Numbered from the stretch's first letter, positions 5,569-22,184 are shown. The stretch is 32,000 nt of DNA from Candidatus Electrothrix sp. GW3-4 (GCF_037902255.1 NZ_CP147990.1:2760001-2792000); one strand, 5' to 3'. Made by a program: numbers and translations. The notes: generated from the sequence alone by a model not told the origin.

Positions 5569-8478
5569 TTACTCTTTTTTAGTCGGCAGCAAAATAACCT
5601 CTGCTGCCTTTTCCGGCTGGAGATATTTGGCCGCAAGGGCAGAGAGCTCCTCAACAGTAATTGCGGCAATATCGCTTAGAATGGTCTTGGGCCATTCTAA
5701 GCGCTCAGGATGGCGGGACGAATCGACTAACACCGAGTCCATCCAGTATCGATTGGTCCGAACCACATCGCGGAGAGAGGTCAGGGTAGGTTCAACGGCC
5801 CGTTCCAGCTCATCTGCACCAATCTTCTTCTTGGTGAGCTGCGCCCCAAGCTGTTTCAGCCTGGCCACCACCATTGCTGCCTGAGGAGGATCAACCACCA
5901 CCACAGTACGTAAGACACCATAGCCGGGATCAACCAGGCTGGAACGGTTATAGGCGTAGGGCGAATAGGCAGCACCCAGTTCCTCCCGGATCAGCTTGCG
6001 CATCCGGTCATCAAGCACTGAGGCCAACATATTCAGTCGCCGGGTACGGGAGATATCCCAGAAATCATCGGTGGGCCAGGCAACAGTGACCATGCCCTTT
6101 TCGCTATGGGTTGTCACAGGCAGGGACAAGGACTGACCAGAGGGAAAGGCGATCTGCTCTCCTTTGAGCTGTTGCACACCCTTTCTCGCCTGCCCAGCAA
6201 AATAGCGCCCGACCAGGTCCACAATCTCCTTCTGCTCAAAATCACCCACCACAGAGATCTCCAGCCCGCTTTGTTGAAACACAGGACGCAGCCAGTGCTC
6301 AATATCAGCAACCGTTATCTTATCCAGCAGCTCTAACGGCACCGCCCCATAACGGAGGTTACCATCGGCGAGAAACCGTTCCCCCTGCAGATGCATCATC
6401 CCTTCCACAGAACTTTCCATCTGGGCATAGGTCTGACGGATCCGCTCCATTCCCCGCGCAAAGGCCTCCTCCCGAAAGGCCGGATCCGCAAGATGGGTAT
6501 AGAGGAGTTGAAAAAGAAGCTCGCTCTCAGACTTCAACCCTTTACCCTGGAACTGAAAGCTATCCGCCTCGATCTGGAAATGTACATGGGCTGAATAGGG
6601 AGCCAGCACCTCCTTGAGTTGCTCCTTGGTCAGCCCCCCCACCCCGCTTTCTGGCAGCAACATTTCAGCCAGCAGGGCCAGACCAGGTTTGGTCTCAGCA
6701 AGCCTGCCATGCCCCAGAACTGCGGTCACCCTGATCTCGTTGGGCTCAAAATCAGTATGCTTTACATTGAGGACCAGGCCATTCTGAAAGACATAGCGTT
6801 CTGCGGCGATATCCTTATAGCTGATATGCTCGGCAACCTCGCCCTGCACCTCCGGGAGGGGGAGATAGGGAAAAACCGCCTCTTTATCCTGTACCCAGGC
6901 CGTAACTTCTGCCTGCCCGGCCTTCTGAAGAGTCTTGAGGATGGTCTCCTCCGGGGAGAGGCCCTCTTCTGTATTCAGCTCTGTGTTCCCCATGACCTTG
7001 ACCAGGCGACGCGCATGCCACATCTCCCCAAAGACCTGGTTGACCTCTGCTAAGGTCATCTTTTCCAAGGCCGGGGCCAGCAGGGCCAGTTCCTGCGCTG
7101 GTGAAAGAAAGACCTCATGATCATTGAGGCTGCGGATAATCCTGGAGACCAGATCCTGACTCTCCCGGCTCTCTGCGACCTGCACCTCCTTCTTTAAGTG
7201 GGTGAGGATCTCTTTTTTGGCCCGGCTCAATTCGGAGGCCACAAAGCCAAAGTCCAGGGCCTGGCGCAAAGCCGTCGTCAGGGTCTCCAAGGTCTGGGCC
7301 CAATTGGCAGGCGATGTCCTGGCATCCAGGGAGGTATAGCCCAGACGACGGAGAAAGACACCACTGGAAAAACCAGCCCTGGTCATAGGGCTCTTGGCTT
7401 GATTGACAAGATGCTGCAAGCGGTTATCCATCATAGCCTGGGCAACATATTTCTTGAGATCAAGGAGGGCCTCTGCCTTGGTGGGTTGTGGCAGCTCAAC
7501 ATTCCAGACAGACTCAAGGGAGACCTGAGTGTAGCCCAGATCGCTCTCAAAGAGATAGATAGGCTCGGTACCGCTTTCTGCGACCCGACCAAAATCCAGA
7601 CAGGGCGGAGCAGGTGCCTTGGCCTGCAGGCTGCTGAACTGCTTTTTGATGAGCTGTTCCAACAGGTCAAGATCCGTATCCCCCACAGCGACCAGGATCA
7701 TATTCTCTGGTCGGTACCAGGTTTCATAATACTGTCTGAGCAGGGCCGAATCAGCCGTCTTCAGGACCTCATCAAGACCGATTATCTCCCGTTGGGCAAT
7801 CAGGGTACCAGCAAGCCCCTGTTCTGTACTCTTCTTCGTGACCCGCCTGGATGCAGAGTCCCTGGTTCGTTTTTCGGCAAGGATAATGCCCCGTTCCTTA
7901 TCCACCTCGTCTTCCAGGAGCAGGGCCCCACCCGCATAATCCATCAAGACCACCAGGCCATCGTGCAGGGTCTTCTCCTTGCCATTGGGCAGGAGCAGCT
8001 TGTACACGGTCTCGTCATAAAAGGTATGGGCATTGGTGTCTCCACCAAAGTCCATGCCGATAGACTGAAAATACTCCACCAAGGCCCCTGGGGGATAATG
8101 GGTGCTGCCGTTAAAGAGCATATGTTCCAGATAATGAGCCAGACCTCGCTGCTCTTCCGTTTCATGGAGGGAACCGGATTGGACATCCAAATACATGGCA
8201 ACCCGGCCCTTGGGCTCGTGATTAGGCATCAACACATAACGCAACCCGTTTTCCAGGGTGCCAAAGATCAAGGAAGGATCAGGCTTGAGATCGCTTTGCG
8301 CATGGGGCCAGCCCTTACTGATACAAAGTTTTGTCGAGATACTTGTTGAACCTTCTGTTGAACCTTGTCTCGACGAAGCTGGGGCTTCCCTGGCCAGAGA
8401 TGCACTGGTGTAACCAAGGGTTGCAAGAACGCAGAAAAATAAAAAGATACGCAGGAAACGAGTACGCTTGAGGTGCAT
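5569..8478 (-). CDS. Secreted M16 (pitrilysin/insulinase) family zinc peptidase, two-unit architecture
   Basis: The inverted zinc motif HxxEH is present (LAHYLEHMLFNGS). At about 970 codons the length fits a tandem M16 active plus inactive unit. I place the start at the internal ATG (complement of 8476-8478), which gives MHLKRTRFLRIFLFFCVLATLGYTSASLA, a signal-peptide-like N-terminus with an AAGGA 8 nt upstream. The track start at 8631 adds a non-homologous leader. Confidence 0.85.
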   Translation of the reverse strand: MHLKRTRFLRIFLFFCVLATLGYTSASLAREAPASSRQGSTEGSTSISTKLCISKGWPHAQSDLKPDPSLIFGTLENGLRYVLMPNHEPKGRVAMYLDVQSGSLHETEEQRGLAHYLEHMLFNGSTHYPPGALVEYFQSIGMDFGGDTNAHTFYDETVYKLLLPNGKEKTLHDGLVVLMDYAGGALLLEDEVDKERGIILAEKRTRDSASRRVTKKSTEQGLAGTLIAQREIIGLDEVLKTADSALLRQYYETWYRPENMILVAVGDTDLDLLEQLIKKQFSSLQAKAPAPPCLDFGRVAESGTEPIYLFESDLGYTQVSLESVWNVELPQPTKAEALLDLKKYVAQAMMDNRLQHLVNQAKSPMTRAGFSSGVFLRRLGYTSLDARTSPANWAQTLETLTTALRQALDFGFVASELSRAKKEILTHLKKEVQVAESRESQDLVSRIIRSLNDHEVFLSPAQELALLAPALEKMTLAEVNQVFGEMWHARRLVKVMGNTELNTEEGLSPEETILKTLQKAGQAEVTAWVQDKEAVFPYLPLPEVQGEVAEHISYKDIAAERYVFQNGLVLNVKHTDFEPNEIRVTAVLGHGRLAETKPGLALLAEMLLPESGVGGLTKEQLKEVLAPYSAHVHFQIEADSFQFQGKGLKSESELLFQLLYTHLADPAFREEAFARGMERIRQTYAQMESSVEGMMHLQGERFLADGNLRYGAVPLELLDKITVADIEHWLRPVFQQSGLEISVVGDFEQKEIVDLVGRYFAGQARKGVQQLKGEQIAFPSGQSLSLPVTTHSEKGMVTVAWPTDDFWDISRTRRLNMLASVLDDRMRKLIREELGAAYSPYAYNRSSLVDPGYGVLRTVVVVDPPQAAMVVARLKQLGAQLTKKKIGADELERAVEPTLTSLRDVVRTNRYWMDSVLVDSSRHPERLEWPKTILSDIAAITVEELSALAAKYLQPEKAAEVILLPTKKE

Positions 8479-8727
8479 AGAACGATCCTTTCTCATAAGG
8501 GTTGGGGTTGACACGATCTTAACATTGAGTTCCAAAAACTGGAAAAAGGATACCATGTTTATCCCTGGAGCCCAAAGAAATAAAGAAAGAAATTTCCTCA
8601 CTTGAAACTCCTCATCTGGAAAAACGCCCATAGAAACCTTTGCCGCAAGCTCAGGATTAGGGTATATTTTTTTAAGAACTCCGCAGCCTCCTCTACAACA
8701 TTCTTGTTCCTCCGTCTCTCAGAGCTT

Positions 8728-9402
8728 ATGAAGATCCTCCTGGTTGAAGATGACCGAAAAATCAAGGCCTTTGTCCAAAAAGGTCTCAAAGAACTGGGCT
8801 TTTATGTCACAGCCTGCGAGGATGGTGATGAAGGCTATTATATTGCCACCAGCCAGTCCTTTGATGCCCTGATCCTGGATATCATGCTCCCTGGACGGGA
8901 CGGCCTCAGCATCCTGCGCAACCTGCGCGAACAGAAAAACACGGTGCCAGTCATCCTGCTCACAGCCCGCTCCGCCCTGAACGAACGCCTGGAAGGCCTG
9001 AACCTGGGCGCAGATGATTATCTCTGCAAACCCTTCTTTATTGAGGAGCTGGCAGCCCGCCTCCATGCCGTCAGCCGCCGGGCCTCAGGCAAGACCCTCA
9101 ATCTCCTCCAATGCGGCGACCTGGTGGTGGACCTGATCAGCCGGGCAGTCAAGATTGGCGAACAGGGCATTGATCTGACAGCCCGAGAATTCACCCTCCT
9201 GGAACTCCTCCTGCGCAGCCCGGACCGGGTCTACACCCGGACCCAGATCCTTGAGCATGTCTGGGGCTATGATTTTGATCCGCAAACCAATGTGGTGGAT
9301 GTCTATATCCGGCGCCTGCGCAATAAGATCAAGGAGTTTTCCAGTGCCCCGGTGATCGAAACGGTCCGCGGGGTGGGTTATCGCCTCAAAGAGCCCGTAT
9401 AG
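8728..9402 (+). CDS. OmpR/PhoB-family response regulator (CusR/CopR-like)
   Basis: MKILLVEDDRKI...ALILDIMLPGRDG...LLTAR...GADDYLCKPF is a receiver domain. The winged-helix output reads LTAREFTLLELLLR...VDVYIRRLRNKI...TVRGVGYRL. I moved the start to the ATG at 8728, the canonical MKILLVEDD N-terminus. Confidence 0.9.
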   Translation: MKILLVEDDRKIKAFVQKGLKELGFYVTACEDGDEGYYIATSQSFDALILDIMLPGRDGLSILRNLREQKNTVPVILLTARSALNERLEGLNLGADDYLCKPFFIEELAARLHAVSRRASGKTLNLLQCGDLVVDLISRAVKIGEQGIDLTAREFTLLELLLRSPDRVYTRTQILEHVWGYDFDPQTNVVDVYIRRLRNKIKEFSSAPVIETVRGVGYRLKEPV

Positions 9403-9417
9403 GCAGCGGAGCAGGCC

Positions 9418-10923
9418 ATGTTCCGCTGCAAGATCGCCCTGTTCTCCGTCCTGATCTCCGGCAGCATCTTGGTCGCATTCGGTCTCCATTTCCTCTCGCT
9501 TATCAGCAAGGTTCAGTTGGCACGACTTGACCGGGAAATCCTCACCCTGGGTGAGAGCCAACTCCATGTGATCCATCCCAAGGGCCATTGGCAAGACTTC
9601 AGCAGCTCCCTGCGCTCCATCTACGGAGAAAAATACCAGAGTGAGCTGATTATCCAGGTCCTCGGAGGTCGGCAGGATGTCCTCTACCAATCCACTGACT
9701 GGCCGAACACAATCTCCCTGGCCTCCTTCCCTGCCTTTACCCAGCAAAAAGTCGAGGAGCAAGCGTCCCGGACAGCAGAGCAAGGAGCGGAAAGACAACT
9801 CCCTCCCCCGCCTCCCAATACACCTCCAGAGGCATATCCCCCTCGCTGGCGTGAACCGGAACCGACCGTCCTGAAACAGCCCTCGTATCAAACCCTGGCA
9901 ACAGACTCAGGTACCTGGCGCGTGGGGATCATGGGTAATCAACGGATCACCATCCTGATCGGCCTGAACATGACGGCATTTTATGAAGATACAGATCATT
10001 ATCGCAACAGCTTTCTCCTTATGGCCCCCCTGGCCCTGCTCCTCATGGCGGGCGGCGGGTGGTGGCTGGCTCAGCGCGCCTTGCGTCCAGTGGGACTCAT
10101 CACCGAGATTGCGGAAAAGATCTCTGCCCAGGGGCTTGATCAACGTATTCCTTCAGACAGGGCGGACACGGAATTTCAGCGCCTGATCACGGTGATTAAT
10201 GCCATGTTAGATCGCCTGGAAGGAGGATTTCAGCAGGCGGTCCGCTTTAGTGCAGATGCCGCCCATGAGCTCCAGACCCCGCTGACCGTCCTGCAAGGCA
10301 TGCTGGATGATGCAGTGCGCCATAGCGAGGCGGGCTCTGCGGAACAGCAACGGAGCAGCGAGCTACTGGAAGAGGTCCAACGGCTCAAGACCATTGTCCG
10401 CAAACTGCTGATCCTTTCCCGGGCCGACGCAGGCAGGTTAGAGCTTTCTCTTGAGCCGGTGAATATGAGTAATATGGTGGCGTCCCTACTGGAGGATGTG
10501 GAGATCATGGCGCCGCAACTGCATATTGATCAGCGCATTCAGTCGGGTTTGCTGGTCAACGCTGATCCTGAGCTGCTTCGGCAGGTGGTGCAGAATATGG
10601 TCTCCAATGCGATGAAATATAACCTTCTGAAGGATGGTATTATTTATTTTCGCCTGGCAGACCGGAAAGGTGTGGTCCATTTTCGGGTGGCGAATACCGG
10701 GCCAGTAATTCCGCCGCAAGATCGGCAACGGATCTTTGACCGATTTTATCGGGTGGATCAATCACGGAATGATCGGGTGCCCGGTTCCGGGCTGGGGTTA
10801 TCCTTGGCCCTTGAGATCACTCGTGCCCATAAGGGCCGCCTGGTGCTTGATCCTCCCAAGAAAGGCATTACCAGCTTTACCCTTTCTCTCCCCCAGCTGC
10901 AGCAGGCTTCCCCTGAAGGATAA
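9418..10923 (+). CDS. Two-component sensor histidine kinase (TM-periplasmic-TM-HAMP-HisKA-HATPase)
   Basis: The H-box is FSADAAHELQTPLT, the N-box VVQNMVSNAMKY and the G-boxes RVDQSRN..PGSGLGLSLA. There are two hydrophobic segments. The periplasmic part contains a proline-rich stretch (QLPPPPPNTPPEAYPPRWREPEP). The gene starts 16 nt after the regulator stop. Confidence 0.9.
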   Translation: MFRCKIALFSVLISGSILVAFGLHFLSLISKVQLARLDREILTLGESQLHVIHPKGHWQDFSSSLRSIYGEKYQSELIIQVLGGRQDVLYQSTDWPNTISLASFPAFTQQKVEEQASRTAEQGAERQLPPPPPNTPPEAYPPRWREPEPTVLKQPSYQTLATDSGTWRVGIMGNQRITILIGLNMTAFYEDTDHYRNSFLLMAPLALLLMAGGGWWLAQRALRPVGLITEIAEKISAQGLDQRIPSDRADTEFQRLITVINAMLDRLEGGFQQAVRFSADAAHELQTPLTVLQGMLDDAVRHSEAGSAEQQRSSELLEEVQRLKTIVRKLLILSRADAGRLELSLEPVNMSNMVASLLEDVEIMAPQLHIDQRIQSGLLVNADPELLRQVVQNMVSNAMKYNLLKDGIIYFRLADRKGVVHFRVANTGPVIPPQDRQRIFDRFYRVDQSRNDRVPGSGLGLSLALEITRAHKGRLVLDPPKKGITSFTLSLPQLQQASPEG

Positions 10924-11755: not shown

Positions 11756-11799
11756 CAGCCTTTGTTGCCTGCTCAGTAAGACAACAAAGGCTGTTTTAT
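11756..11799 (+). terminator. Rho-independent terminator
   Basis: A perfect 12-bp stem pairs CAGCCTTTGTTG (11756-11767) with CAACAAAGGCTG (11782-11793) around a 14-nt loop, followed by TTTTAT. It lies downstream of the 11307-11690 gene, and its 3' flank overlaps the intI stop codon. Confidence 0.65.
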
Positions 11800-12800
11800 A
11801 TGTTCAACTTCTCCAGCGGACTTGACAGGCGAGAGATGTCTTTATTCATAACATGGGTGTATATTTCAGTGGTTTTCACGTCGGCATGCCCCATCAATTC
11901 CTGAAGCACACGAATGTTTGTACCGTTTTCCAGCATAGCGGTGGCAAAGCTGTGGCGCAGGGTATGACAGGTGACCCGTTTGTCAATTCCGGCCTTATGC
12001 GCAGCCCGTTTGACAGCTTTTTGTAAACCTGACTCCATAACATGATGGCGTCGTATTTTCCCTGAGCGCGGATCAGCAGATCGTTTTCTGGAAGGGAAAA
12101 CATACTGCCAGCGGGTTTCCCGTGCAGCGGCAGGATATTTACGCGCCAACGCCTCCGGGATATACACCTCACCAAAGCCTGTTTCCAGATCGTTGTGGTG
12201 CAAAAGCTTCACACGATCAATATGCTCCCTCAATTCCGCAACGACAGGTTCAGCGAGAATCGTATTACGTTGCTTATCTCCTTTTCCCAAAATACGAATT
12301 CGCTTTCGATCAAAATCAACATCCATAATCCGTAACCGCACACACTCCATAAGACGCAACCCGGAACCGTAGAGGAGTTTGGCCATCAGAGCATGCGTTC
12401 CCTGGATATGCTTGAAAAACCGCTGTATTTCTTCGCCCCCGAGGACGGTGGGCAGGTTGGGCTTTCTTTTTGAGCGGATGGGCTGAATTTTTTCAGCCAA
12501 GGGCATATCAAAAACATCCCGATAAAGAAAAACGAGGGCGTTCAAGGCCTGACGCTGGGTAGATGCGGATACTTTACGTTCCACAGCAAGATGAGAGAGG
12601 AAGCGTTCAACATCGCCAGCCCCGAGTTCGGCAGGATGAATCTTGCACTCAAAAAAATGAATGTAGCGGAGTATCCACTGACTGTATGTCTGCTCTGTCT
12701 TATAGGCATAATGATGATAGCGAAGAACTTCATGAACTTGCTCCATCAATTTAAGCTTCGGATTTGGACGAAATTTTTGTTTACTCTTTTTATTTTCCAT
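11796..12800 (-). CDS. intI: Integron integrase (tyrosine recombinase, IntI family)
   Basis: 334 aa. The sequence includes LRYHHYAYKTEQTYSQWILRYIHFF, ALNALVFLY, LLYGSGLRLMECVRLR (catalytic R), GKGDKQR (K), HTLRHSFAT (H..R) and GHADVKTTEIYTHV (H, Y). The IntI-specific insertion is present: IPEALARKYPAAARETRWQYVFPS...DPRSGKIRRHHV. This matches the ALxRKYP...W.FP...DPRSG..RRHH patch of known integron integrases. Confidence 0.92.
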   Translation of the reverse strand: MENKKSKQKFRPNPKLKLMEQVHEVLRYHHYAYKTEQTYSQWILRYIHFFECKIHPAELGAGDVERFLSHLAVERKVSASTQRQALNALVFLYRDVFDMPLAEKIQPIRSKRKPNLPTVLGGEEIQRFFKHIQGTHALMAKLLYGSGLRLMECVRLRIMDVDFDRKRIRILGKGDKQRNTILAEPVVAELREHIDRVKLLHHNDLETGFGEVYIPEALARKYPAAARETRWQYVFPSRKRSADPRSGKIRRHHVMESGLQKAVKRAAHKAGIDKRVTCHTLRHSFATAMLENGTNIRVLQELMGHADVKTTEIYTHVMNKDISRLSSPLEKLNI

Positions 12801-12961
12801 GTTAGCTACTGTATATCATAATAAGAGGAAAGATGCAGGTGGAAATTGATAAGTGGACAAAAAATCCACTTTTACCGTGTCAATATCTGAATAAGTGGAT
12901 TTCTGCGGTACCTATTACGGTCAATAGCAGGACAAATTTCCATTTATTAATACTGTTAGGC
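12801..12961 (+). other. attI region with crossover site GTTAGGC (12955-12961)
   Basis: GTTAGGC fits GTTRRRY and is the exact complement of the R'' heptamer of cassette 1 (GCCTAAC, 13356-13362). The region also holds ATAAGTGGA direct repeats at 12849 and 12891 and an inverted TCCACTT at 12865. The left limit of attI is not defined by sequence alone. Confidence 0.6.
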
Positions 12962-12980
12962 ATAAAATAAAATCGTCAGT

Positions 12981-13361
12981 ATGCAGACAATTACAGTGCC
13001 AGAATTAATTTTCGCAGAATATATGTTCAGCTTGACAATAGAGCAGTGGGATAACTTACTTATTGACTTTAAAAACCAAGGATTAGAGAACATAACGCCT
13101 ACTTCAAAACAGTATTTAGAAGATTGTAAAACAAATGAAACTCATTTAATCGCCATAACGGGTAACTTAGATTTCAGCGGCATTACTTTCCCATTTACAG
13201 CTCAATTAGATGTGAATGGCTTCATACTTTATATAAATAAGCCGCATAACAAGCGCGGCTTTATAGATAAACTTCTAGGTAAGTCAAATGCGCATAAACT
13301 TGCCTATGAGCAATTGATTGTACGATTATGCGAAACATATAAAACCCTAAAAAATGCCTAA
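12981..13361 (+). CDS. Cassette 1 ORF, hypothetical protein (126 aa)
   Basis: This is the only sizeable ORF in the 492-bp cassette (12956-13447). Its stop codon TAA lies inside the attC R'' box, as is common for cassettes. I see no clear RBS and recognise no family. Confidence 0.5.
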   Translation: MQTITVPELIFAEYMFSLTIEQWDNLLIDFKNQGLENITPTSKQYLEDCKTNETHLIAITGNLDFSGITFPFTAQLDVNGFILYINKPHNKRGFIDKLLGKSNAHKLAYEQLIVRLCETYKTLKNA

Positions 13362-13453
13362 CAAGTGCATAAACACGGACCAACCAAAGCGGTGCGGTTT
13401 CCGCTGCGCTACAACCGCCCCACTTTGGTTGGCCGGTTATGCTGTCGTTATGC
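13356..13453 (+). other. attC site 1 (98 bp)
   Basis: R'' is GCCTAAC (13356-13362) and R' is GTTATGC (13447-13453). The arms form a long imperfect palindrome: AAGTGCATAAACACGGACCAACCAAAGCGGTGCGG against the reverse complement GACAGCATAACCGGCCAACCAAAGTGGGGCGG. Confidence 0.78.
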
Positions 13454-13503
13454 CTCGAAATTATATAAAGCACCGCCAACGCAAAACTTAATAAGGAGAA
13501 AAA

Positions 13504-13695
13504 ATGGACAACAACAGTATTATTCAATACCTAATAGGCATTGCCCTAACTCTTTATCCGACATGGAGAATAGTAAAAAGAACAGGATTAAACCCAAATT
13601 GGTCAGCTCTTCTACTTATTCCAGGTCTTGGGGCTCTCATCGTCACTTGTATGCTTGCCCTCAGCGAATGGCCATTAAACGATAGGAGGGGATAA
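13504..13695 (+). CDS. Cassette 2 ORF a, small membrane protein (63 aa), DUF805-like C-terminal motif
   Basis: Strong RBS (taaggagaaaaaATG). There are two hydrophobic helices. The motif KRTGLNPNWSALLLIPGLGALIV...LSEWP is a paralogue of the next ORF. Confidence 0.6.
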   Translation: MDNNSIIQYLIGIALTLYPTWRIVKRTGLNPNWSALLLIPGLGALIVTCMLALSEWPLNDRRG

Positions 13696-13697
13696 TC

Positions 13698-13895
13698 ATG
13701 TTTGGTTTAGGGTTTCCAGAATTAATCATAATAATCGTAATACTCTGCATCCTTGCTATACCAGTCTGGCTTCTTTCAAAAATATTAGATAAAGCTGGTT
13801 TCTCAGGTTGGTTTTCACTTCTCGGCATTATCCCAATCGTGAACATTATTGCCTTATGGGTATTCGCCTTTATCTCTTGGCCTGCTGAGCAATGA
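13698..13895 (+). CDS. Cassette 2 ORF b, small membrane protein (65 aa), DUF805-like motif
   Basis: Strong RBS (taggaggggataatcATG), starting 3 nt after ORF a. The motif DKAGFSGWFSLLGIIPIVNIIALWVFAFISWP resembles, from my recollection, the GxSGWW..LL..IP signature of DUF805-type inner-membrane proteins. Confidence 0.6.
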   Translation: MFGLGFPELIIIIVILCILAIPVWLLSKILDKAGFSGWFSLLGIIPIVNIIALWVFAFISWPAEQ

Positions 13896-13913
13896 TAAAA
13901 CAATAAAAATCAG

Positions 13914-14033
13914 GCATAACAATTCGCTCAAGCACGACGCGCGAGCACGCCAGTTTTAACGGCTTCGGCCACCTAACTACAACACGAACTTACTCAACCT
14001 CGGCTAGGCGCGCGTCTTAGCTTTGCGTTAGCA
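13914..14033 (+). other. attC site 2 (120 bp)
   Basis: R'' is GCATAAC (13914-13920), the exact complement of GTTATGC at the cassette's 5' end. R' is GTTAGCA (14027-14033). The left arm AATTCGCTCAAGCACGACGCGCG pairs imperfectly with ...GGCGCGCGTCTTAGCTTTGC. The GCATAACAATTCG... start resembles classical attC sites. Confidence 0.7.
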
Positions 14034-14125
14034 ATGAAAGGGTACTTGACCGATAGCATACTCGGTACCGTAGCCAAGTATAAACCTTTCGATAAAGTCG
14101 TTGCTTGATATAAAAGGAGATGCCT

Positions 14126-14737
14126 ATGTCTTACTTTGATAAAAAGCCGCTCACCCACATAACCCTCTTGCCAAGTGAGGTGCATTTGCATTCAGCGGTG
14201 CTAGTAAGAGCAACCTTAAATAAGCTGTTCGGTTTTGTCGGCCCAAAGGTCGCTGGAATTCAGCCTCTTGCTCCACGCTACAGGGCCCATATAACAAACC
14301 AGCGTCTTCTCATGGAGATATATCCGTATTCCGGAACGGAAAAGACTGTTACGAAATGGGGGCTTAAGGGAGTATCGATGCTGATGGGTTCCTTTGTAGA
14401 CACCCCTCAATTACATGCCCAGATAGCTGTGCAAAAAATGATGTACAATGCAGCAATGGATGAAAATCTTGCTGCTGCAGATGATCCAAACGCGCAGTAT
14501 ATTGCAATTCCATATGATACTCTGACCGTGACCACCTATGGAAGTGCACCATCCTATCTCAAACTTGAGATCCCTGGGGTCGAAGAAGAGATAGTCTTTA
14601 TAGCCCAACTTGATACCGAAGGTCGGTTGCTCCCTAAAGGTAATATTATCGACAACGCAAAGGCGGGATGGGGGCTTTCTCGGGAATTCGCAAAGCTATG
14701 TCAGGAAGCGATAGCCAGTTACCGCTCAAGAGCTTAA
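14126..14737 (+). CDS. Cassette 3 ORF, hypothetical protein (203 aa)
   Basis: An AAGGAG lies 7 nt upstream of the ATG at 14126. The track start at 14120 abuts the RBS. This is the only long ORF inside the cassette (14028-14824). I recognise no family. Confidence 0.6.
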   Translation: MSYFDKKPLTHITLLPSEVHLHSAVLVRATLNKLFGFVGPKVAGIQPLAPRYRAHITNQRLLMEIYPYSGTEKTVTKWGLKGVSMLMGSFVDTPQLHAQIAVQKMMYNAAMDENLAAADDPNAQYIAIPYDTLTVTTYGSAPSYLKLEIPGVEEEIVFIAQLDTEGRLLPKGNIIDNAKAGWGLSREFAKLCQEAIASYRSRA

Positions 14738-14770
14738 TTTTAGGACGTCAAAAAAAAGACTGCAATTCAT

Positions 14771-14830
14771 TGCTAACAAGGCTAATTCAGCCGACGCAAA
14801 AAGCCGCGCGGCTGATTAGAAGCGTTGGAT
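14771..14830 (+). other. attC site 3 (60 bp, classical short type)
   Basis: R'' is TGCTAAC (14771-14777), the exact complement of GTTAGCA at 14027. R' is GTTGGAT (14824-14830) and fits GTTRRRY. The arms AAGGCTAATTCAGCCGACGC and GCGCGGCTGATTAGAAGC pair with two unpaired bases, as expected for attC extrahelical bases. Confidence 0.82.
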
Positions 14831-14835
14831 TAGTA

Positions 14836-16080
14836 ATGAGTAAATATTTGACCAATAAAGGCATTATAGTAACTGCTGAAAATAACAATAAATTTACCCT
14901 GGAAGACATTTTAGGTAATAAGGTTGGATATAGAGATGAAGAATCAATTGAAAATATCGTTAATAAATTCAAATTAAAAATTTGTGCCAAAGAAAATACA
15001 AATAATAATGCATTCGTTAACCCATCATTCCCTTTTTCGATAATTATAAATGATGTTAAAGAATACTTGTTACCAGCAAAGATGGGTTTATTGCTCGATT
15101 TGTTGCGTCAAATCGAAGATGTGTCATTTCAATTAGTAATAGGCAGACAATTTGGAAAGGAAGCATTATCAATATATAAACAATACAATCTCATCAAAGT
15201 CGCAATAAAAGAGGGGCATATAGACAGCAATGAGTACGAAAAAATAGTCAATGATCTTCGCAAGCAAGACAACGAGATTGCTAATGCATTGTTAATAATG
15301 GATGAAATAGCAAGGTTAGGAGACCTTATTAGAACAGAAGTTTGCCACTCTGAATTCTGTCTTATAAACGCTATATATTCAATTAGAAAGCATGTTGAGG
15401 TTGAAAACTCAAGATCAATAATAAAGAGTGGAGGCGAAAGAATATGTTATGGTTTTTACATCGACAGTGCCACATGGCATTTTATTGATTCAATAAAATC
15501 TATTTCAACTGCTTTAGACTCCCTGGCAAAACTAGTAAAATTTATTTTTGATATTGATGTAGGTAAGTTACCAAAGAAAAAAAATGTCCTTTTTGGAGAT
15601 ATGAAACATATTAAAAACTGGAATGGTTCATTAACGACAAATTCACTGACATTATTAAATAATCAGTTTGCAAGCCTCAAAGCAGTAATAAATTTTCGCC
15701 ATCATGTAACTCATAACTCAGGGCTTTTCCACAGCCAGAATTCTATTTTTATTGGTCGCAGAACACCAGCCATAAGCAACTTGGATTTAATATATGGTGA
15801 TTTATTAATGTGGGATAGAAATGGTGACGAATTTTTAACCTCGCAAAGAACTGTAGGTTTCTTCTCGCAACAAAATAATGCTATTGAATTTGCTAACGAA
15901 GCTCTTGAACTAACTGTAAAATATACAGAAAACATATTCAGGATTCTAAGAACTAATGTTCTTGATAAGTGTAACGCAGCCAAAATTAGAGAATTGTCGC
16001 TAATCAGGTTCAACCCAAATGAAACAATTACTTTCAGCAGGCATCAAACCAGTGAGCTTCAACAAACTGTAATTGTATAA
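14836..16080 (+). CDS. Cassette 4 ORF, hypothetical 414-aa protein with HEPN-like Rx4H motif (candidate Abi-type effector)
   Basis: I set the start at the first ATG after the cassette boundary (14825). The track start at 14668 would read through attC 3. The gene is very AT-rich. The motif FRHHVTHNSG (RHHVTH at 15697-15714) fits Rx4-6H in a predicted helical C-terminal half, preceded by the helix DSIKSISTALDSLAKLVKFIF. Confidence 0.6.
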   Translation: MSKYLTNKGIIVTAENNNKFTLEDILGNKVGYRDEESIENIVNKFKLKICAKENTNNNAFVNPSFPFSIIINDVKEYLLPAKMGLLLDLLRQIEDVSFQLVIGRQFGKEALSIYKQYNLIKVAIKEGHIDSNEYEKIVNDLRKQDNEIANALLIMDEIARLGDLIRTEVCHSEFCLINAIYSIRKHVEVENSRSIIKSGGERICYGFYIDSATWHFIDSIKSISTALDSLAKLVKFIFDIDVGKLPKKKNVLFGDMKHIKNWNGSLTTNSLTLLNNQFASLKAVINFRHHVTHNSGLFHSQNSIFIGRRTPAISNLDLIYGDLLMWDRNGDEFLTSQRTVGFFSQQNNAIEFANEALELTVKYTENIFRILRTNVLDKCNAAKIRELSLIRFNPNETITFSRHQTSELQQTVIV

Positions 16081-16084
16081 CAAA

Positions 16085-16210
16085 ATCCAACAAATCATTT
16101 CAAGGGACTGCTACCGGTTTGGCTCGTTCAAAGTAATCGGTAAAGCGTAGCTTATACAACGTTCCACCATCTCGGTAATGCGCCGCAGCCCCTGAATTCA
16201 ATCGTTGGAC
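16085..16210 (+). other. attC site 4 (126 bp), last recognisable site of the array
   Basis: R'' is ATCCAAC (16085-16091), the exact complement of GTTGGAT at 14824. R' is GTTGGAC (16204-16210). The arms AAATCATTTCAAGGGACTGC and GCAGCCCCTGAATTCAATC pair imperfectly. Confidence 0.68.
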
Positions 16211-16732
16211 AAGCCCGGCATTATATAGAAAACATCTTTTTGGGCTGAAGGCTGCCTGATCAGACAGATGGATTGAAAGGCTGTTTCGGAGCTGATAAAT
16301 CTGATCTTTGCAATTGATTCACCCTGCTCATAAGGCTTTAGCTGATGAAAAATGGTGTTTTTTGGACATAGGTATCCTTTGCCGGTTGAACCGGTTTTTT
16401 CGAAAACTGACGATGTCGCTTCAGGGTTACATAACCATGCATACCTCCTTTTTTATGCGATGCAAACCGCTGGCCGGAAAGACTATCAGTTGTCCCACAG
16501 AAAAATCATTTTTAGCCTTCTCGTTCTATGTATGAACAACTCACAACGTGAAATTGTCTTGCAACGTGCGGCAGTAATGGGCGTGCCCGACCAGATCGCC
16601 GAAATTGTAGTGTCTCTGTTCTATGACCCAATGTAGGACAATTGGTTCTTTGCACAAATCAGAAACAGACACCGATTAGGCCCTCCATGTTTGCGGGACA
16701 ACTACCGCTATAAAAAAAAACGACAAGAATAT

Positions 16733-18010
16733 ATGAACGAATCAGCAGATGAAACGGCGTGGGAGATGAATCTGAGGATCACCAGGAATGAGGAGTCGCC
16801 AAGCGAACAGACCCTCCTTTTGTTGAGTCACGCTGATCAACAATCACATCAAGACCGGGTGAAGACGGCCTATTACGGGCAAAAGCGTCTTGTGATCAGT
16901 GATGCAGCATCAGGCTCATATCAAGATGTCTCGCTGTTTGCAATAATGAGTTTTCGGTCCGCTGAGCATTGGAACCGTCAAAGTATCAGCAAAGCAATAG
17001 AGGCAGGTGGCGCAGTGCTCCATGAACAGCACGTTACACCGCTGATGTCTCGCCACGATTTGTCTCAGGGAACACAGGAACATCTGAATGAGTTGAAGTG
17101 GCAGGACGACAAGGCAATGGCGGAAGGAGTTGTTTTGTTTGCTGCCAGTGGCGGTGAATGGCCTGTTCCCGGAATAGTCTGTCAGCGTTTTGCACGGTAT
17201 GTGAGAAGGTGCTTTGGGGGGCATCCGGCAATCATCCGTCGTATAGCTACTGCTGAATCATTGCCGAAACGACTTGAGATTATATCCTGGTTTGGAGACA
17301 AACAGGAAAATAATATCATTGAAATCATGCAGAGCACTCAGGCCTCATCTATAAAGTTATCCGAAACTTCTATGCTGTCAAGGGACTTCGGGGATGACCA
17401 ACTTGCCCGATGCATGGAAGCAGCATACCACAGCGGCCCGATCTGCGACGCTGATTTTGAAAAAAATTTGGCCCGTATTCGAGGGGACTTGGAGAAAGAA
17501 CGATGGTTTCCCGCCCTGCTAGGCGTTTTAACCCTCGGATGGTCTCACCCTATAGCAACCATTCCGCAGGATGTGTTCGGTCTTGTGCAGCCGCTCAGTA
17601 GGGCAGATCCTACGGCGGCACAATGTTGTGCAGTACTGGAGAGGGTGCGGCAGGGAGATTTGGATATCACAAAATTGACGGAAGAATTTCAACAAATGCG
17701 ACAAGCTGCTGCCGACCGTGCCTATGTTTTGGATATTTTCCTCGGTACCTTTTTGATAGATGAAGAACCGAGCCAGGCGATCAGCGCATATCTTGCTGGC
17801 CTTCAGGGGGACCCACGCCTTGTGAGCCCTTACCATGACTTGGGCTTGATATTTGAGAGAAAGTATAACCACAATGATGCATATAGATGCTGGGATTTTG
17901 CCAGATGGCTTTCCCCCAACCATCCGATCATGAGCGACGTGGAGGCCTGGGAGCACGATATCCTTGCAGTAGAGGCGGAGGCACCGTTTGGGCAGTTTGT
18001 TTCAATATAG
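16733..18010 (+). CDS. Hypothetical protein (425 aa) with TPR-like C-terminus
   Basis: This is a long ORF. The track start is a TTG at 16691, and I prefer the ATG at 16733 (MNESADETAWEM...). The C-terminal AISAYLAGLQGDPRLVSPYHDLGLIFERKYNHNDAYRCWDFARWLSPNHP looks like TPR repeats. I recognise no other family. Confidence 0.5.
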   Translation: MNESADETAWEMNLRITRNEESPSEQTLLLLSHADQQSHQDRVKTAYYGQKRLVISDAASGSYQDVSLFAIMSFRSAEHWNRQSISKAIEAGGAVLHEQHVTPLMSRHDLSQGTQEHLNELKWQDDKAMAEGVVLFAASGGEWPVPGIVCQRFARYVRRCFGGHPAIIRRIATAESLPKRLEIISWFGDKQENNIIEIMQSTQASSIKLSETSMLSRDFGDDQLARCMEAAYHSGPICDADFEKNLARIRGDLEKERWFPALLGVLTLGWSHPIATIPQDVFGLVQPLSRADPTAAQCCAVLERVRQGDLDITKLTEEFQQMRQAAADRAYVLDIFLGTFLIDEEPSQAISAYLAGLQGDPRLVSPYHDLGLIFERKYNHNDAYRCWDFARWLSPNHPIMSDVEAWEHDILAVEAEAPFGQFVSI

Positions 18011-18351
18011 TCGCGAAGTAACTGGACCGCACGCCGGGCAGGTCTCCCAGGATAAGGACGTGATCTTTCACTACACAACCGTGGCATGTACCCTATCTCC
18101 TAAACCCAGGATTTCGTCATGTTGTGCTGACTTACCCGGAAACTGGGCCTTGTATGCCATTTCTGTTCGTCGGCTCATAGCTTTGCTCCAGGTTTCCTTC
18201 AGACGATTCCTCGCGAAATCGCCCTCGGAATCTGCGCTTACCTGACTTTTACTAGTATTTATGGTCCTGTCTCACGATAGTACCAGGGTTTACGAATAAG
18301 GAAAAAGATCAAACAGGACTTTGTTGAAAATCGTATTGAAGATAAAGTCAA

Positions 18352-19113
18352 ATGAATAATTGGTTTACAATAGATCAGATTGATCAAGCAACTTATATCA
18401 TAAGCGAATACCGCCATTGGGAAGAAACACATTGCTATCTTTTGAATGGCTCTGAACGCAGTTTGCTCATTGATACCGGACTTGGAATCAGTAATATATA
18501 TGATGAAGTCATTAAGCTGACAGACAAGCCAGTCACTGCTGTCGCTACGCACATTCACTGGGATCATATTGGCGGTCATAGATTTTTCCAGGATTTTTAC
18601 GCTCATGGGGCTGAACTGAACTGGCTTAACGGAGAGTTCCCTCTGACAATGGAGCAGATTAAAGGAATGGTCGTTGACCGCTGTGACTTGCCGGAAGATT
18701 TTGATGTAAACAACTATGAGTTCTTTCAGGGCAATCCGACTAGAGTGCTAGAGGATAATGATGTAATTGATATTGGAGACAGATTTGTTCAGATAGTCCA
18801 TACGCCTGGCCATTCGCCCGGGCATATTTGTTTTTGGGAAAAGGAGCGTGGTTATCTTTTTACCGGTGATTTGGTTTATAAAGACACGCTTTTTGCCTTC
18901 TTTCCGTCTACTGATCCAGAAGCGTACCTCAATTCCCTGAAACGGATATCGGCCTTACCGGTGAAGCATGTATTCCCTTCGCATCACACTCTGGATATTC
19001 AGCCTGAAATTCTTGGCAGAATGCGTGATGCCTTTCGGCAATTAAAGGCTGAGGGAAAATTGCATCATGGCAGCGGAACATATGACTACGGCGATTGGGC
19101 TATATGGCTATAA
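18352..19113 (+). CDS. MBL-fold metallo-hydrolase
   Basis: The HxHxDH motif is present (ATHIHWDHIGGH), along with HTPGHSPGHICF and TGDLV downstream, in a 253-aa ORF. Confidence 0.85.
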   Translation: MNNWFTIDQIDQATYIISEYRHWEETHCYLLNGSERSLLIDTGLGISNIYDEVIKLTDKPVTAVATHIHWDHIGGHRFFQDFYAHGAELNWLNGEFPLTMEQIKGMVVDRCDLPEDFDVNNYEFFQGNPTRVLEDNDVIDIGDRFVQIVHTPGHSPGHICFWEKERGYLFTGDLVYKDTLFAFFPSTDPEAYLNSLKRISALPVKHVFPSHHTLDIQPEILGRMRDAFRQLKAEGKLHHGSGTYDYGDWAIWL

Positions 19114-19232
19114 CAGGAAAGACACCGAACAACAATGCGTTCTTCGAACGCTCCTTGCGTCGCACCGCACAGTTTAAACGTTATATGGCAGACATCCCAA
19201 TACGTACCATACCTTGCAAAAGGAGACTCAAT

Positions 19233-19961
19233 ATGACTCGACTGCTCGTTTTATTCATTGTGTTTACGCTTTCTCAGGCTATTTCGCTGGCCGAGGATGC
19301 AACGGCATCCGGCAAGATTATCGTGGATGCGAGCAAGGATGGGGGAGTGTGGTGGTTCCCGCAAGGACAAGACGGCTTTGACCCCGCAAAAGACCACCAA
19401 GGGAAGCGGCTCGCAGACTATCTGAAATCTCGCAGTTGGAAAGTTCAAGAGATTGCTCGCGGTGACGACGTAACAGAACGACTTGAAGGCGCTGACATTG
19501 TGATTCGCGCTGGTCTTTTCGGTAAATACAAGGAGTCCGAAGTGCGTGCCTACCGAGAGTATGTTTCAGGTGGGGGAAACGTACTCCTTCTTCGAGGTTT
19601 CGTGCGCGAAGGCAACATGAGTAGTGACAAGGTTGCCAAAGAGTTTGGTATCGTCTTTTCAGAGACCGTGCGAACGGCAACCATCAAACGTTGGGCACAG
19701 CATCCTCTTGCCAAGAATCTCCAATTATTGCGATACAACATTGGCAGCATCGTCACCGAATCGCCAAATTCGACTATCCCAATCGCTTATTTGGACAACG
19801 ATCAGATCGTTATGGGCATCGTGACAAGCGGCAAAGGGAAAGTCGTCTTCGTCAGCACCATTCTGCCCCTATTACAGGTCCCTCAACCATTTACAAAACG
19901 TGTCCTTGATGAATTGACACGCAAGAACCAGCACCCAAACCAAATGCTATCTAACGAATAA
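19233..19961 (+). CDS. Secreted hypothetical protein (242 aa)
   Basis: The ATG at 19233 is preceded by AAAGGAGA. The N-terminus MTRLLVLFIVFTLSQAISLAEDA looks like a signal peptide. The upstream part of the track ORF from 19095 overlaps the MBL gene and has no support. Any fold assignment, such as GATase1-like or DUF4350-like, is only a guess. Confidence 0.6.
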   Translation: MTRLLVLFIVFTLSQAISLAEDATASGKIIVDASKDGGVWWFPQGQDGFDPAKDHQGKRLADYLKSRSWKVQEIARGDDVTERLEGADIVIRAGLFGKYKESEVRAYREYVSGGGNVLLLRGFVREGNMSSDKVAKEFGIVFSETVRTATIKRWAQHPLAKNLQLLRYNIGSIVTESPNSTIPIAYLDNDQIVMGIVTSGKGKVVFVSTILPLLQVPQPFTKRVLDELTRKNQHPNQMLSNE

Positions 19962-20000
19962 GGTTAGATTGTGCAAGCGCAGCGAGCCACAATCTGAACC
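19962..20000 (+). terminator. Hairpin immediately after the stop codon, possible weak intrinsic terminator
   Basis: GGTTAGATTGTG (19962-19973) pairs with CACAATCTGAACC (19988-20000) with one bulged base and a 14-nt loop, followed by ATTTGTTG, a poor U-tract. Confidence 0.35.
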
Positions 20001-20281
20001 ATTTGTTGAATAAATCGCTCAACCGGAGCGGTGGTTTGGCGCGTGTTTAAGAGAGAATAAGGAACAGCCCCCAATGAGCCGTCATTTTTCAAAACGCTTG
20101 CATCGTTCTGTAGCATCTTATTCTGTTTTGTTGGGTTATAGACTAATGCCTATGAGTTACCTAATTTTGCGCAGATCAAGGCAAACAATGCCCGAACCAA
20201 ACGCTTGAGTGGATGCGAAGAACTCCGGCGGCGTTTACGCGGCAAGTTTTGGAGAACCGCTGCTGAATTCAAACGTATGCT

Positions 20282-20611
20282 ATGAATCCTAAAAAAGTTA
20301 TCAGAAATAACGTTCGCGTTCTCACCGATCTTCCCAATATTGGCAAATCGATGGAAAGAGCTCTGCTATCCATAGACATCCAGCAGCCAAATAATCTGAT
20401 AGGTCAGTCTCCCTCTCAGATGTACGAAGAGCTTTGTCAAAAAACAGCCGCAAAACAAGATCCATGCGTACTGGATGTATTCATTTCCATCACTCGCTTC
20501 ATGGAAGGGGAAGATCCCAAACCTTGGTGGAAATACACGCGGGAAAGGAAAGAATACTTAAAAGAACAAACAGATAACAAAGAGCAAAAAGGGGCGAATT
20601 TATCCTTCTGA
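20282..20611 (+). CDS. Helix-hairpin-helix domain protein (Cdd1/'pathogenicity locus'-like family)
   Basis: 109 aa. LTDLPNIGKSMERALLSIDIQQPNNLIGQSPSQMYEELC...QDPCVLDVFISITRFMEGEDPKPWWKYTRERK matches my recollection of the conserved LPNIG...DPC.LD...PWW.YT.ERK signature. Confidence 0.6.
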   Translation: MNPKKVIRNNVRVLTDLPNIGKSMERALLSIDIQQPNNLIGQSPSQMYEELCQKTAAKQDPCVLDVFISITRFMEGEDPKPWWKYTRERKEYLKEQTDNKEQKGANLSF

Positions 20612-20752
20612 ACTCCCACTGACTTCAAGATATTTTCCTTTTCTCCTCCACCATCCCCCTTGCCCCATCTGCCTGTATCTGGTACCATTCTCTTGAGGAA
20701 AATGAACGCCCCCTGATCATCGCGGCAATACCTGGGCGGCGGGTGAGCTTGG

Positions 20753-20761
20753 TGTTATAAT
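20753..20761 (+). promoter_or_regulatory. Extended -10 promoter element TGTTATAAT
   Basis: TGnTATAAT matches at 20753-20761, about 50 nt upstream of the Uma2 gene start at 20813. There is no good -35 hexamer. Confidence 0.35.
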
Positions 20762-20812
20762 GAAATGCAGGATGGAAAGGCTATGGATACGGAATACTGA
20801 GAAGGGAAGATA

Positions 20813-21364
20813 ATGGGATTACCTCAAAGGAAGTTATTTACAAAAGATGAATATCTGTTATTAGAAGAAAAAGCAGACTCAAAGCATGAGTTGGTTAACG
20901 GTGAAATCTATGCAATGGCCGGTGCTAAAGAAAATCATGTGAAAATAACAGGTAACATATTCAGAAATATTGCCAATCATTTGCTTGAATCCCCATGTGA
21001 TGTTTATTCAAGTGACATGAAATTATCAGCAGGGTTTGATTGTTATTATCCCGATGTTTTTGTCAAATGCGACCCGGACGATAATGACGAATTAGTTAAA
21101 GAAAAACCGATACTCATTGTTGAAGTTCTGTCAGAATCAACGAAACATTTTGATAGAGGAGATAAACTGCAAAATTATCTCAGAATTCCAAGTTTACAAG
21201 AATATGTCCTGGTGAGCCAGAAAGAAATTGAAACTTGGATATACAGGCGAAGAGGAAAAAAGTGGGAGATGGAAATCTTAAAAGATAATGATGAGCTTCA
21301 TTTTATTTCTATTGATTTGAAAATACCAGTTGGAGATTTATACGTAAAAGTGCTCTTTTCCTGA
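20813..21364 (+). CDS. Uma2 family (DUF820) PD-(D/E)XK-type putative endonuclease
   Basis: 183 aa. FTKDEYLLLEE....ELVNGEIYAMAGAKENHVKITGNI...YYPDVFV...PILIVEVLSEST...DRGDKLQNYLRIPSLQEYVLVSQ is the typical Uma2 layout (E..nG, PD, EV.S, K..Y). Confidence 0.8.
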   Translation: MGLPQRKLFTKDEYLLLEEKADSKHELVNGEIYAMAGAKENHVKITGNIFRNIANHLLESPCDVYSSDMKLSAGFDCYYPDVFVKCDPDDNDELVKEKPILIVEVLSESTKHFDRGDKLQNYLRIPSLQEYVLVSQKEIETWIYRRRGKKWEMEILKDNDELHFISIDLKIPVGDLYVKVLFS

Positions 21365-21393
21365 AAAATAGCTGAAAAAATGAGCGGATTGCA

Positions 21394-21840
21394 ATGCGCA
21401 TCGCCAAGCTGATCCTCTCCAAAATCCTTGATCAGGAAATCGAAACCCTGGAGTTCAAACCCACAGAGTTCAGAAAAAAAATCGGCCTGAACCTCACCGT
21501 CTTCCGCATCGACTTCTCCGCTGTGATCCGCCAGGAGGACGGCAGCCGCAAGCTGGTTCTGATCGAAATCCAGAAGGCCAAGCTGCCCACCGACATCATG
21601 CGCTTTCGTAAATATCTCGGCGGCCAGTATCAAGATCCCAACAACGTCTATCCCACAGAGGACGGTGCCAGCGAAAAGGCCCTGAGTAGAGCATGCTCCG
21701 GGACATTTCCCCTTCCTTCTCTCCCCAAAAACACCCGCAAAACCCTCCTCACAAAAATCCACAACCATCCAGCCCACAACTCCCCTACTTTCTCTTTTCA
21801 CTCGACAAATATTTCTTGTCATATTTCAACAATTATGTAA
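21394..21840 (+). pseudogene. Remnant of a PD-(D/E)XK nuclease family (putative transposase-like) gene
   Basis: The first ~85 codons, AKLILSKILDQEIETLEFKPTEF...VFRIDFSAVIRQEDGSRKLVLIEIQKAKLPTDIMRFRKYLGGQY, resemble the N-terminal third of roughly 300-aa PD-(D/E)XK family proteins. That full length is from my recollection. After about 21650 the frame runs into low-complexity CA-rich sequence (PLPSLPKNTRKTLLTKIHNHPAHNSP...) with no protein-like character. Confidence 0.5.
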
Positions 21841-22184
21841 AAAACATCCCGCTCAAGACAGCACCTTACAAAAACTCAATCTATCCAAAAAGATAACCTA
21901 TCACCACAAAAACAATTCTGTAAAAACAACGTAACATATTCATTTTATAGAATTAACAAAATAGAGATGCTTCCTATTAGCTTTCTCCCTTGCAATAAAA
22001 TTCGATCGCGCTAGGGTGACAAAAAAGAGCAATCTTTACAAAAACAAGCCTGCACTTCTCCACACAGAACGAACGAGTTCCCTCGCAAAGTCCTCACGCA
22101 GAAAAGCAGCATCCAAAAACACCATGAGTAAAGTTAAATTGAGTAGTTACTCATAACAGCAATCCAAAGCGGAGTATAGACACT

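Follow-up and report, generated by a model that had tools for sequence, protein, structure and literature searches.

Evidence that Candidatus Electrothrix antwerpensis GW3-4, a cable bacterium, carries a complete chromosomal integron with mobile gene cassettes

Introduction

We analysed a stretch of 32,000 nucleotides from Candidatus Electrothrix sp. GW3-4 (GCF_037902255.1, NZ_CP147990.1:2760001-2792000), hereafter called the window, and find that it holds, with a probability of about 0.93, an integron that is complete and chromosomal. Its host, Candidatus Electrothrix antwerpensis GW3-4, is a cable bacterium. All coordinates given here are positions in the window, and "+" denotes the direction in which the cassettes are read. 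An integrase gene (intI), an attachment site (attI) and gene cassettes bounded by attC sites, which together define a complete integron, are all present. The GW3-4 element is genuine and intact, an integrase accompanied by an array of mobile gene cassettes. It is a well-formed yet ordinary case of a well-known system, and its cargo consists of rare genes without known function.

The closed genome of GW3-4 (about 4.7 Mb) has been described in a paper that does not mention integrases or mobile elements (PMC11247825). No integron of Electrothrix or of cable bacteria is reported in the literature that we searched, and as far as this search shows the present one is the first described in cable bacteria. 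The proteins of its first and third cassettes are annotated as WGN25_12300 and WGN25_12315 on a contig of 4,642,691 bp of strain GW3-4, which places the integron on the chromosome. A sequence search also finds the integrase sequence on two Logan contigs.

Results

The intI gene occupies positions 11796-12800 on the - strand and encodes an intact protein of 334 residues. The NCBIfam model TIGR02249 ("integron integrase") matches it with 433 bits at a cutoff of 265, while the XerC and XerD models give only 151-156 bits, far under their cutoffs of about 330. With 302 bits against a cutoff of 435 for the class-1-type equivalog NF011946, the enzyme is not of the class-1 type. Both the SAM-like N-terminal domain (Phage_int_SAM_4) and the catalytic domain (Phage_integrase) are matched in Pfam. 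The closest solved structure is that of VchIntIA (PDB entry 2A3V), to which residues 21-332 align end to end (E 3.7e-93). Based on this alignment, the catalytic RKHRHY set was assigned to Arg149, Lys173, His279, Arg282, His305 and Tyr314, and it is complete. The insertion specific to integron integrases, at about residues 217-253 (ALARKYP...WQYVFPS...DPRSGKIRRHH), aligns with that of VchIntIA. An earlier note on this DNA, made from the sequence alone, had described an intact integrase with these catalytic positions and this insertion, and had proposed an integron-integrase-specific profile as a check; the description is borne out by the structure alignment and by the TIGR02249 score.

The attI region lies beside intI at 12801-12961 (+) and ends with the core GTTAGGC. 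It was delimited by alignment with the attI regions of relatives. The five attI regions compared, four from related contigs and that of the window, are about 95% identical through TTATTAATACTGTT, which ends in ACTGTT, and are unrelated from the next base on. Thus the crossover point G^TT is located at 12955/12956. DNA homology between the window and the contigs of the relatives ends at 12957-12969. A cluster of TAAGTGGA repeats is found within attI. Its exact copies at 12850 and 12892 (+) are the sole two in the 32 kb, and copies with one mismatch are present at 12865 and 12939 in inverted orientation (-) and at 12822 (+). All repeats of this type (12822-12946) are conserved in the attI regions of the relatives, and they may be candidate binding sites for accessory IntI molecules or for a regulator.

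Four attC sites follow attI, all on the + strand. We searched for them with a heuristic finder, which searches for AAC...GTT ends that enclose paired arms at a score threshold of 8, and with a covariance model (R1), which was trained on 13 attC sites from other genomes only and scored at every position of the window as a surrogate for the model of IntegronFinder. The training alignment of R1 covaries in the R and L boxes, where 83% of the cells are paired versus 24-46% with slid partners, and 11 of the 16 pairs show double changes. With the heuristic finder, all four sites are recovered and score between 8 and 14.5; shuffled windows give 0-4 matches each at the same threshold. It also detects sites upstream of intI in related loci. 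The top four R1 matches in the 32 kb are exactly the four sites. They are attC1 (13356-13453, 98 bp, R'' GCCTAAC and R' GTTATGC; 41.4 bits, E 8e-10), attC2 (13914-14033, 120 bp, R'' GCATAAC and R' GTTAGCA; 15.0 bits, E 0.034), attC3 (14771-14830, 60 bp, R'' TGCTAAC and R' GTTGGAT; 25.7 bits) and attC4 (16085-16210, 126 bp, R'' ATCCAAC and R' GTTGGAC; 29.2 bits, E 3e-6). These boundaries agree to the base with those that the earlier note had named for an attC model to find. A second model (R2), built from 45 sites including three of the window sites, attC2 not among them, scores the four at 53, 42, 36 and 33 bits. The last value belongs to attC2, the weakest of the four (33.2 bits, E 5e-6).

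Folding of the bottom strands, also proposed in that note, gave clear extrahelical bases in attC1 and attC3, and ambiguous minimum-energy folds in attC2 and attC4. In attC1 the bottom strand forms the expected hairpin at -31.2 kcal/mol (z -5.8), in whose '' half three single T bases are bulged, and the bottom strand of attC3 forms the expected hairpin with the bulges T37 and A44 in the '' half. Rfam contains no attC family, and the only match of its whole-window scan was to a group II intron. Matches to attC1 and attC3 in a permissive Rfam scan were miRNA-like, of the generic hairpin kind only, and were discarded as meaningless. To be noted, the assembly of SRR28154588 breaks within attC2, with contig L001 ending at 13955 and contig L087 beginning at 14001, and that of SRR28154589 is contiguous across the site. 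The break could reflect heterogeneity of the population at this junction or a drop of coverage related to the hairpin.

The boundaries of the four cassettes validate each other. All nine heptamers of the core and of the four attC sites were located in a check of the whole window, where GTTAGGC and GCCTAAC have one copy each. Successive G^TT points are 492, 580, 797 and 1380 bp apart. The 5' end of each cassette complements its own R'' box over 7 nt, and the complementarity continues to 9, 9, 12 and 8 nt in cassettes 1-4, respectively. Among the 24 ways of pairing the 5' ends with the R'' boxes, only the collinear one matches at all four places; in the mismatched combinations, 0-3 of the 4 variable bases agree. 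The same junction rule is obeyed by 13 of 20 adjacent attC pairs in other arrays, which were defined independently. Cassette arrays therefore truly have this property, and its presence in the window is no coincidence. The first cassettes of relatives obey it as well, with GTTCGCT/AGCGAAC in the locus L004 and GTTCGGC/GCCGAAC in L034. The earlier note had built its case on the four exact pairs and on cassettes of the above sizes, and both were confirmed on recount. Its statement that GTCCAAC, the complement of the last R' box, has no copy downstream of 16204 also holds.

The junction rule would follow from the mechanism of integration. IntI, a tyrosine recombinase with an integron-specific extra domain, is expected to recombine the folded bottom strand of an attC site with double-stranded attI at G^TT. 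New cassettes would enter at 12955/12956 and would be read on the + strand, divergent from intI. Each intact cassette still begins with the TTNNNN needed to complete its own attC in the circular form, and the 5' ends for this reason complement the R'' boxes.

For comparison with relatives, 185,579 species genomes were scanned, which gave 76 loci. The closest IntI proteins are from Candidatus Electrothrix marina (98% identical), Desulfobulbaceae S24.Bin023 (96%) and another Electrothrix metagenome-assembled genome (MAG; 96%). In the relatives with an IntI 96-98% identical, the homology goes no further than the G|TT of attI, and other cassettes are found past it. This shows that genomes with near-identical integrases differ in their first cassettes. 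None of the 76 related loci contains a homologue of a cassette protein of the window. The earlier note had named a gene order conserved among relatives as evidence against its proposal; the order is not conserved. Homologues of the proteins of cassettes 3 and 4 are found beside attC sites in other arrays, as described below. Judged by this variability and this context, the cassettes are independently mobile units. For attC3, a site in a Desulfobacula integron (L006) shows 94% identity and an attC on the plasmid pLNU-11 shows 86%, and a fifth attC, described below, resembles sites of Candidatus Scalindua. With the closest matches of these two sites in other phyla and in distant hosts, the resemblance points to a shared cassette pool. 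The heterogeneity of the attC sites likewise suggests that the cassettes have been drawn from such a pool.

Cassette 1 (12956-13447, +, 492 bp) contains an open reading frame (ORF) at 12981-13361 for an orphan protein of 126 residues. No homologue was found among 5.8 billion proteins save the GW3-4 entry WGN25_12300 itself. Cassette 2 (13448-14027, +, 580 bp) carries two ORFs for small membrane proteins, at 13504-13695 (63 residues) and 13698-13895 (65 residues). The second of them has a weak match to DUF805 under the Pfam threshold and a weak match to phrog_32536 in PHROGs. Pfam, NCBIfam, PADLOC and PHROGs give no significant match for any of the five cassette proteins, in line with the statement of the earlier note that none belongs to a recognised family, which holds at this first pass. 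The note had also called the cassettes far more AT-rich than the flanks. The G+C fractions are 0.38, 0.417, 0.458 and 0.333 for cassettes 1-4, 0.473 for intI and 0.523 for the left flank, so the statement is right for cassettes 1 and 4 and not for cassettes 2 and 3.

Cassette 3 (14028-14824, +, 797 bp) has an ORF at 14126-14737 for a protein of 203 residues from a rare family with only six homologues. A homologue of 86% identity sits between strong attC matches (27-33 bits) on the metagenome contigs L088 and L089, where its neighbours differ from those in the window and, on one of the two contigs, include a DarT/NADAR cassette. This homologue has the same 5' junction, with the first 11 nt GTTAGCAATGA, but a different attC. 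The mutated R'' box TGCTATC (TGCTAAC in the window) is retained there (1583-1691 in L089 and 3014-3122 in L088), and the different attC, of 86 bp, is found 14 nt past it. These features suggest replacement or fusion of the attC on an otherwise conserved cassette. A structure model of the cassette 3 protein, with a mean predicted local distance difference test (pLDDT) score of 51, was too poor to use.

Cassette 4 (14825-16204, +, 1380 bp) encodes a putative Cthe_2314-like HEPN protein of 414 residues (14836-16080), as judged by remote homology. Nine homologues are close to the protein, and a search of 1.84 billion proteins yields 46 representatives of the family. The motif R288-H-x-x-T-H293 is invariant in the protein and its nine homologues. 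It has no direct Pfam match, and its structure model (pLDDT 69) has no PDB match by Foldseek. The link to HEPN is transitive: the distant member P0050 passes the Pfam model HEPN_Cthe2314 (PF18730) with 31.3 bits at a cutoff of 27.1, and hhalign relates the cassette 4 family to P0050 with 95.5% probability, FRHHVTHNSGL being aligned with VRNTIIHNSFL. An attC match follows directly after the cassette 4 homologue in L079-L082 and lies just upstream of one in L085. Other homologues are found near conflict-system genes, including ORC-CDC6-like, HD-CE, PRTase-CE, NACHT, PLD, UvrD, DEAD/MZB helicase and CARF. Based on the invariant R-x4-H motif, the alignment with P0050 and these neighbourhoods, we hypothesize that cassette 4 encodes an RNase of the HEPN type, possibly a phage-defence or toxin gene. 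This would agree with recent reports that cassettes without known function encode phage defence (bioRxiv 10.1101/2024.07.02.601719).

One could go further and regard the cassette 4 proteins as an undescribed small family of single-gene defence or abortive-infection proteins of the HEPN type, which travels as an integron cassette among sediment bacteria. This is a speculative proposal that we hold to be rather unlikely. If it were true, the Electrothrix integron would be a small bank of defence genes. Support for such a bank comes from the first cassette of the related integron in L004 (6726-8687, -), which encodes a GmrSD-like type IV restriction enzyme of 653 residues (Pfam GmrSD_N, 103 bits). 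In L004 this defence gene stands in the best-expressed cassette position.

Past attC4, the interval 16211-19948 (+) lacks an intact attC, and its comparison with relatives turned up no homology. It contains a 439-residue ORF of unknown function (16691-18010, +) and, by Pfam, a metallo-beta-lactamase-fold gene (18352-19113, +) and a gene for an IFT52-GIFT-like secreted protein (about 19233-19961, +). Between the first two lies the remnant of a group II intron at 18027-18225 (-), a D1-D4 segment of about 200 nt antisense to the cassettes (RF02001, 132 bits). The remnant has no domain V (no RF00029 match at E up to 5) and no reverse-transcriptase ORF. Plasmid pLNU-11 carries an intron with about 67% identity to the remnant, and that intron adjoins an attC (42 bits) placed in the opposite orientation. 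In addition, a terminator-like hairpin, GCCGGTTGAACCGGT, followed by TTTTTT, is found at 16381-16395 (+), 170 bp past attC4, and could end the transcription of the proximal array.

A fifth attC of 63 bp was detected at 19949-20011 (R'' ATCTAAC, R' GTTGAAT) by the heuristic finder and by homology to Scalindua. It is 82-84% identical to sites inside two arrays of Candidatus Scalindua, and this homology starts at TAAC and stops at GTTG. The statement of the earlier note that the recognisable array ends at 16210 is amended by this site. Its strand is ambiguous by structure. The models and some sequence features favour an inverted site on the - strand. This was set aside since both Scalindua counterparts obey the junction rule on the + strand: in L021, GTTATGC at 4110 pairs with GCATAAC at 4848, and in L053 the sole GTTATGT of the locus, at 2489, pairs with ACATAAC. 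We thus count the fifth attC in array orientation (+), which is the more likely one. A further candidate at 19124-19186 (+), after the metallo-beta-lactamase-fold gene, has the R''/R'-like ends ACCGAAC...GTTATAT, and its R' box differs at a single base from the partner that the fifth attC should have. R1 gives it 13.5 bits and R2 only 9.7 bits (E 2.4), and it forms no L-box hairpin. This segment may be a decayed attC or a chance match, and it was not counted as a sixth site.

The far edge of the variable region is likely marked by a truncated ORF at 21394-21840 (+), which is 87% identical to positions 906-1196 of L004, about 2.9 kb past the last attC of the L004 integron. Since attI and this ORF are common to the window and L004 and everything between them (12956-21393) is non-homologous, the variable region probably extends to about 21.4 kb. 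The ORF is homologous to a 294-residue gene of L004 over its first 101 residues only, after which an A+C-rich low-complexity stretch follows. It looks truncated beside unusual sequence (21394-22180), and the GC skew at 21601-22000 is -0.46. Genes of the Cdd1 family (PF11731) and the Uma2 family (PF05685) are found past the fifth attC at 20282-21364. Within the same part, a short non-coding segment (20608-20737) has counterparts of 77-81% identity at two places in L034, directly past the last attC of that array.

Several observations concern the integron platform and its surroundings. The intI-attI block (11775-12957) is far closer between Electrothrix species than a neighbouring core gene (5569-8631; L003, L004 and L005). 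On the same contigs, the identity at third codon positions is 0.89-0.92 for intI, while the M16 peptidase gene, at a distance of 3 kb, reaches 0.60; the corresponding nucleotide identities are 96% and 78%. As the third-codon identity of intI is well above that of the peptidase gene, a recent exchange of the platform between Electrothrix species is suggested. In L004 the platform is found in another chromosomal context, where it adjoins a cmoB-like methyltransferase and a betaine ABC transporter. A two-component system (a response regulator and a HAMP/HisKA kinase; 8602-10923) stands between the M16 peptidase gene and intI in the window. It is missing from the syntenic contigs L003 and L005, which indicates an indel between species. 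Furthermore, L034, from the same MAG as L004, carries at 9838-10282 a second attI together with an intI cut short after residue 94. Two attC sites come next, both in accord with the junction rule. This MAG thus has two platforms for integrons, of which one lacks a working integrase.

Discussion

Several results weigh against a complete integron that reaches to the fifth attC, and they have to be considered together with other explanations of the region. With R1, attC2 reaches only 15 bits, and its bottom strand folds no better than shuffled sequences. For the cassette promoter (Pc), no sigma-70-like match stands out; candidate promoter hexamers are present at 12794-12822 (+), and such matches are no commoner than in shuffles. 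The scan for promoters and terminators gave nothing above chance, and no LexA-type regulatory site was identified in the promoter scan. The fifth attC is weak under both models (11.2 bits with R1; 16.8 bits, E 0.05, fifth-best with R2), both of which prefer the - strand, and it has a single bulge on the opposite, unusual half. Its GTTAGAT partner is missing upstream. The interval 16211-19948 fails the junction rule, so that we infer rather than observe an origin from cassettes for it. As hairpins after genes are common and the Rfam matches on attC1 and attC3 are to generic hairpins, one might see in the palindromes repetitive extragenic palindromic (REP)-like elements or intrinsic terminators, placed between ordinary genes beside an Xer-like recombinase. 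We regard this explanation as refuted by the integrase profiles (433 bits versus 151-156 bits for XerC and XerD), by the fit of the sites to an attC sequence and structure model built from other integrons, by the exact complementarity at the junctions, by the lack of T-tracts after the sites and by the divergence of the flanks at G|TT. A more serious thought is that the integron is a fossil, whose platform and sites can be recognised while recombination has ended and the differences in cassettes date from old events. The shortness of the array, the decayed distal part with its lost attC sites and intron remnant, and the missing Pc and LexA-type site would fit. Against this stand a full-length intI with every catalytic residue present, four proximal junctions free of mutations over 8-12 nt, and genomes in which IntI differs by only 2-4% in protein sequence while the first cassettes, attached at the same G|TT, are altogether different. 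A fossil is thus improbable, and the integron probably has recombination activity at the present day.

It is conceivable that there are just four cassettes, that the array ends at 16210, that ordinary chromosome follows and that 19949-20011 is an unrelated hairpin. The junction rule does fail after 16204, with GTCCAAC absent downstream and GTTAGAT absent upstream of the fifth site; this site scores just 11-17 bits, and no intact attC is found in 16211-19948. Other observations speak against an unrelated hairpin and an end at 16210: the 63-bp site shares its 82-84% identity with two Scalindua array sites precisely between R'' and R', in arrays that obey the junction rule, the whole of 12956-21393 is non-homologous to L004 between common edges, and a putative remnant of the group IIC-attC type lies antisense between two ORFs, just where an attC would be expected. 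An end at 16210 is an alternative that we find doubtful. In the reading that we prefer, the array would continue in decayed form to the fifth attC, and the attC sites in between would have been lost. The 3.7 kb between attC4 and the fifth attC are not one intact cassette, because GTTAGAT is missing upstream, and the genes of this interval may stem from cassettes that have decayed or fused. The targets of group IIC-attC introns are the bottom strands of attC sites, mostly in last cassettes; the inserted intron runs antisense to the cassettes and separates a gene from its attC (PMC3001079). One attC was probably lost after invasion by such an intron, with the segment of about 200 nt left behind, and a decayed insertion of this kind would be a reasonable explanation of the loss.

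Integrons are a textbook system routinely found by IntegronFinder, which should report this standard one as well, and the mechanism described here is not new. The value of the GW3-4 integron lies elsewhere. With a closed genome from a clonal enrichment culture, the dynamics of the cassettes could be followed experimentally. Cassette and attC sharing is shown among Desulfobacterota, Planctomycetota (Scalindua) and plasmid-borne integrons of Gammaproteobacteria. Furthermore, a few rare genes in the cassettes could be taken into functional screens, among them one for a likely HEPN nuclease.

A comparison with known systems places the parts of the element as follows. Like group IIC-attC introns of the S.ma.I2 lineage (PMC3001079), the intron remnant is antisense and distal, lies between an ORF and the expected position of an attC, and is homologous to an intron that abuts an attC. 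It differs from them in its length of about 200 nt and in having neither domain V nor reverse transcriptase nor a recognisable adjoining attC. The cassette 4 protein resembles Cthe_2314-like HEPN proteins (PF18730) in that its R-x4-H motif aligns with the RNxxxH of a family member over the Pfam threshold. It has R-H-x-x-T-H in place of R-N-x-x-x-H and an extra N-terminal beta-rich domain.

With class 1 mobile integrons the element shares an attC3 close to the site on the IncP plasmid pLNU-11, while it has no Tn402 or plasmid context and no resistance genes, and its flanks are chromosomal genes. Compared with the Vibrio cholerae superintegron, the catalytic residues and the insertion that binds the extrahelical bases of attC in VchIntIA are conserved in the GW3-4 integrase. 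The GW3-4 array has 5 attC sites versus about 180, with heterogeneous lengths of 60-126 bp versus the homogeneous VCR family. Sedentary superintegrons have about 20 or more homogeneous, species-specific attC sites; with only five sites, dissimilar to each other, the present one is not a superintegron. From the environmental chromosomal integrons of Desulfobacterota, Nitrospira, Kiritimatiellales and Candidatus Scalindua, which emerged here as relatives, it is set apart by its short array with a decayed distal part and by its cable-bacterium host. With these it has in common the extra domain of IntI, the crossover at the G|TT of attI, attC sites of the form R''-L''...L'-R', cassettes of one or two ORFs mostly without known function, and the divergent intI of the majority group.

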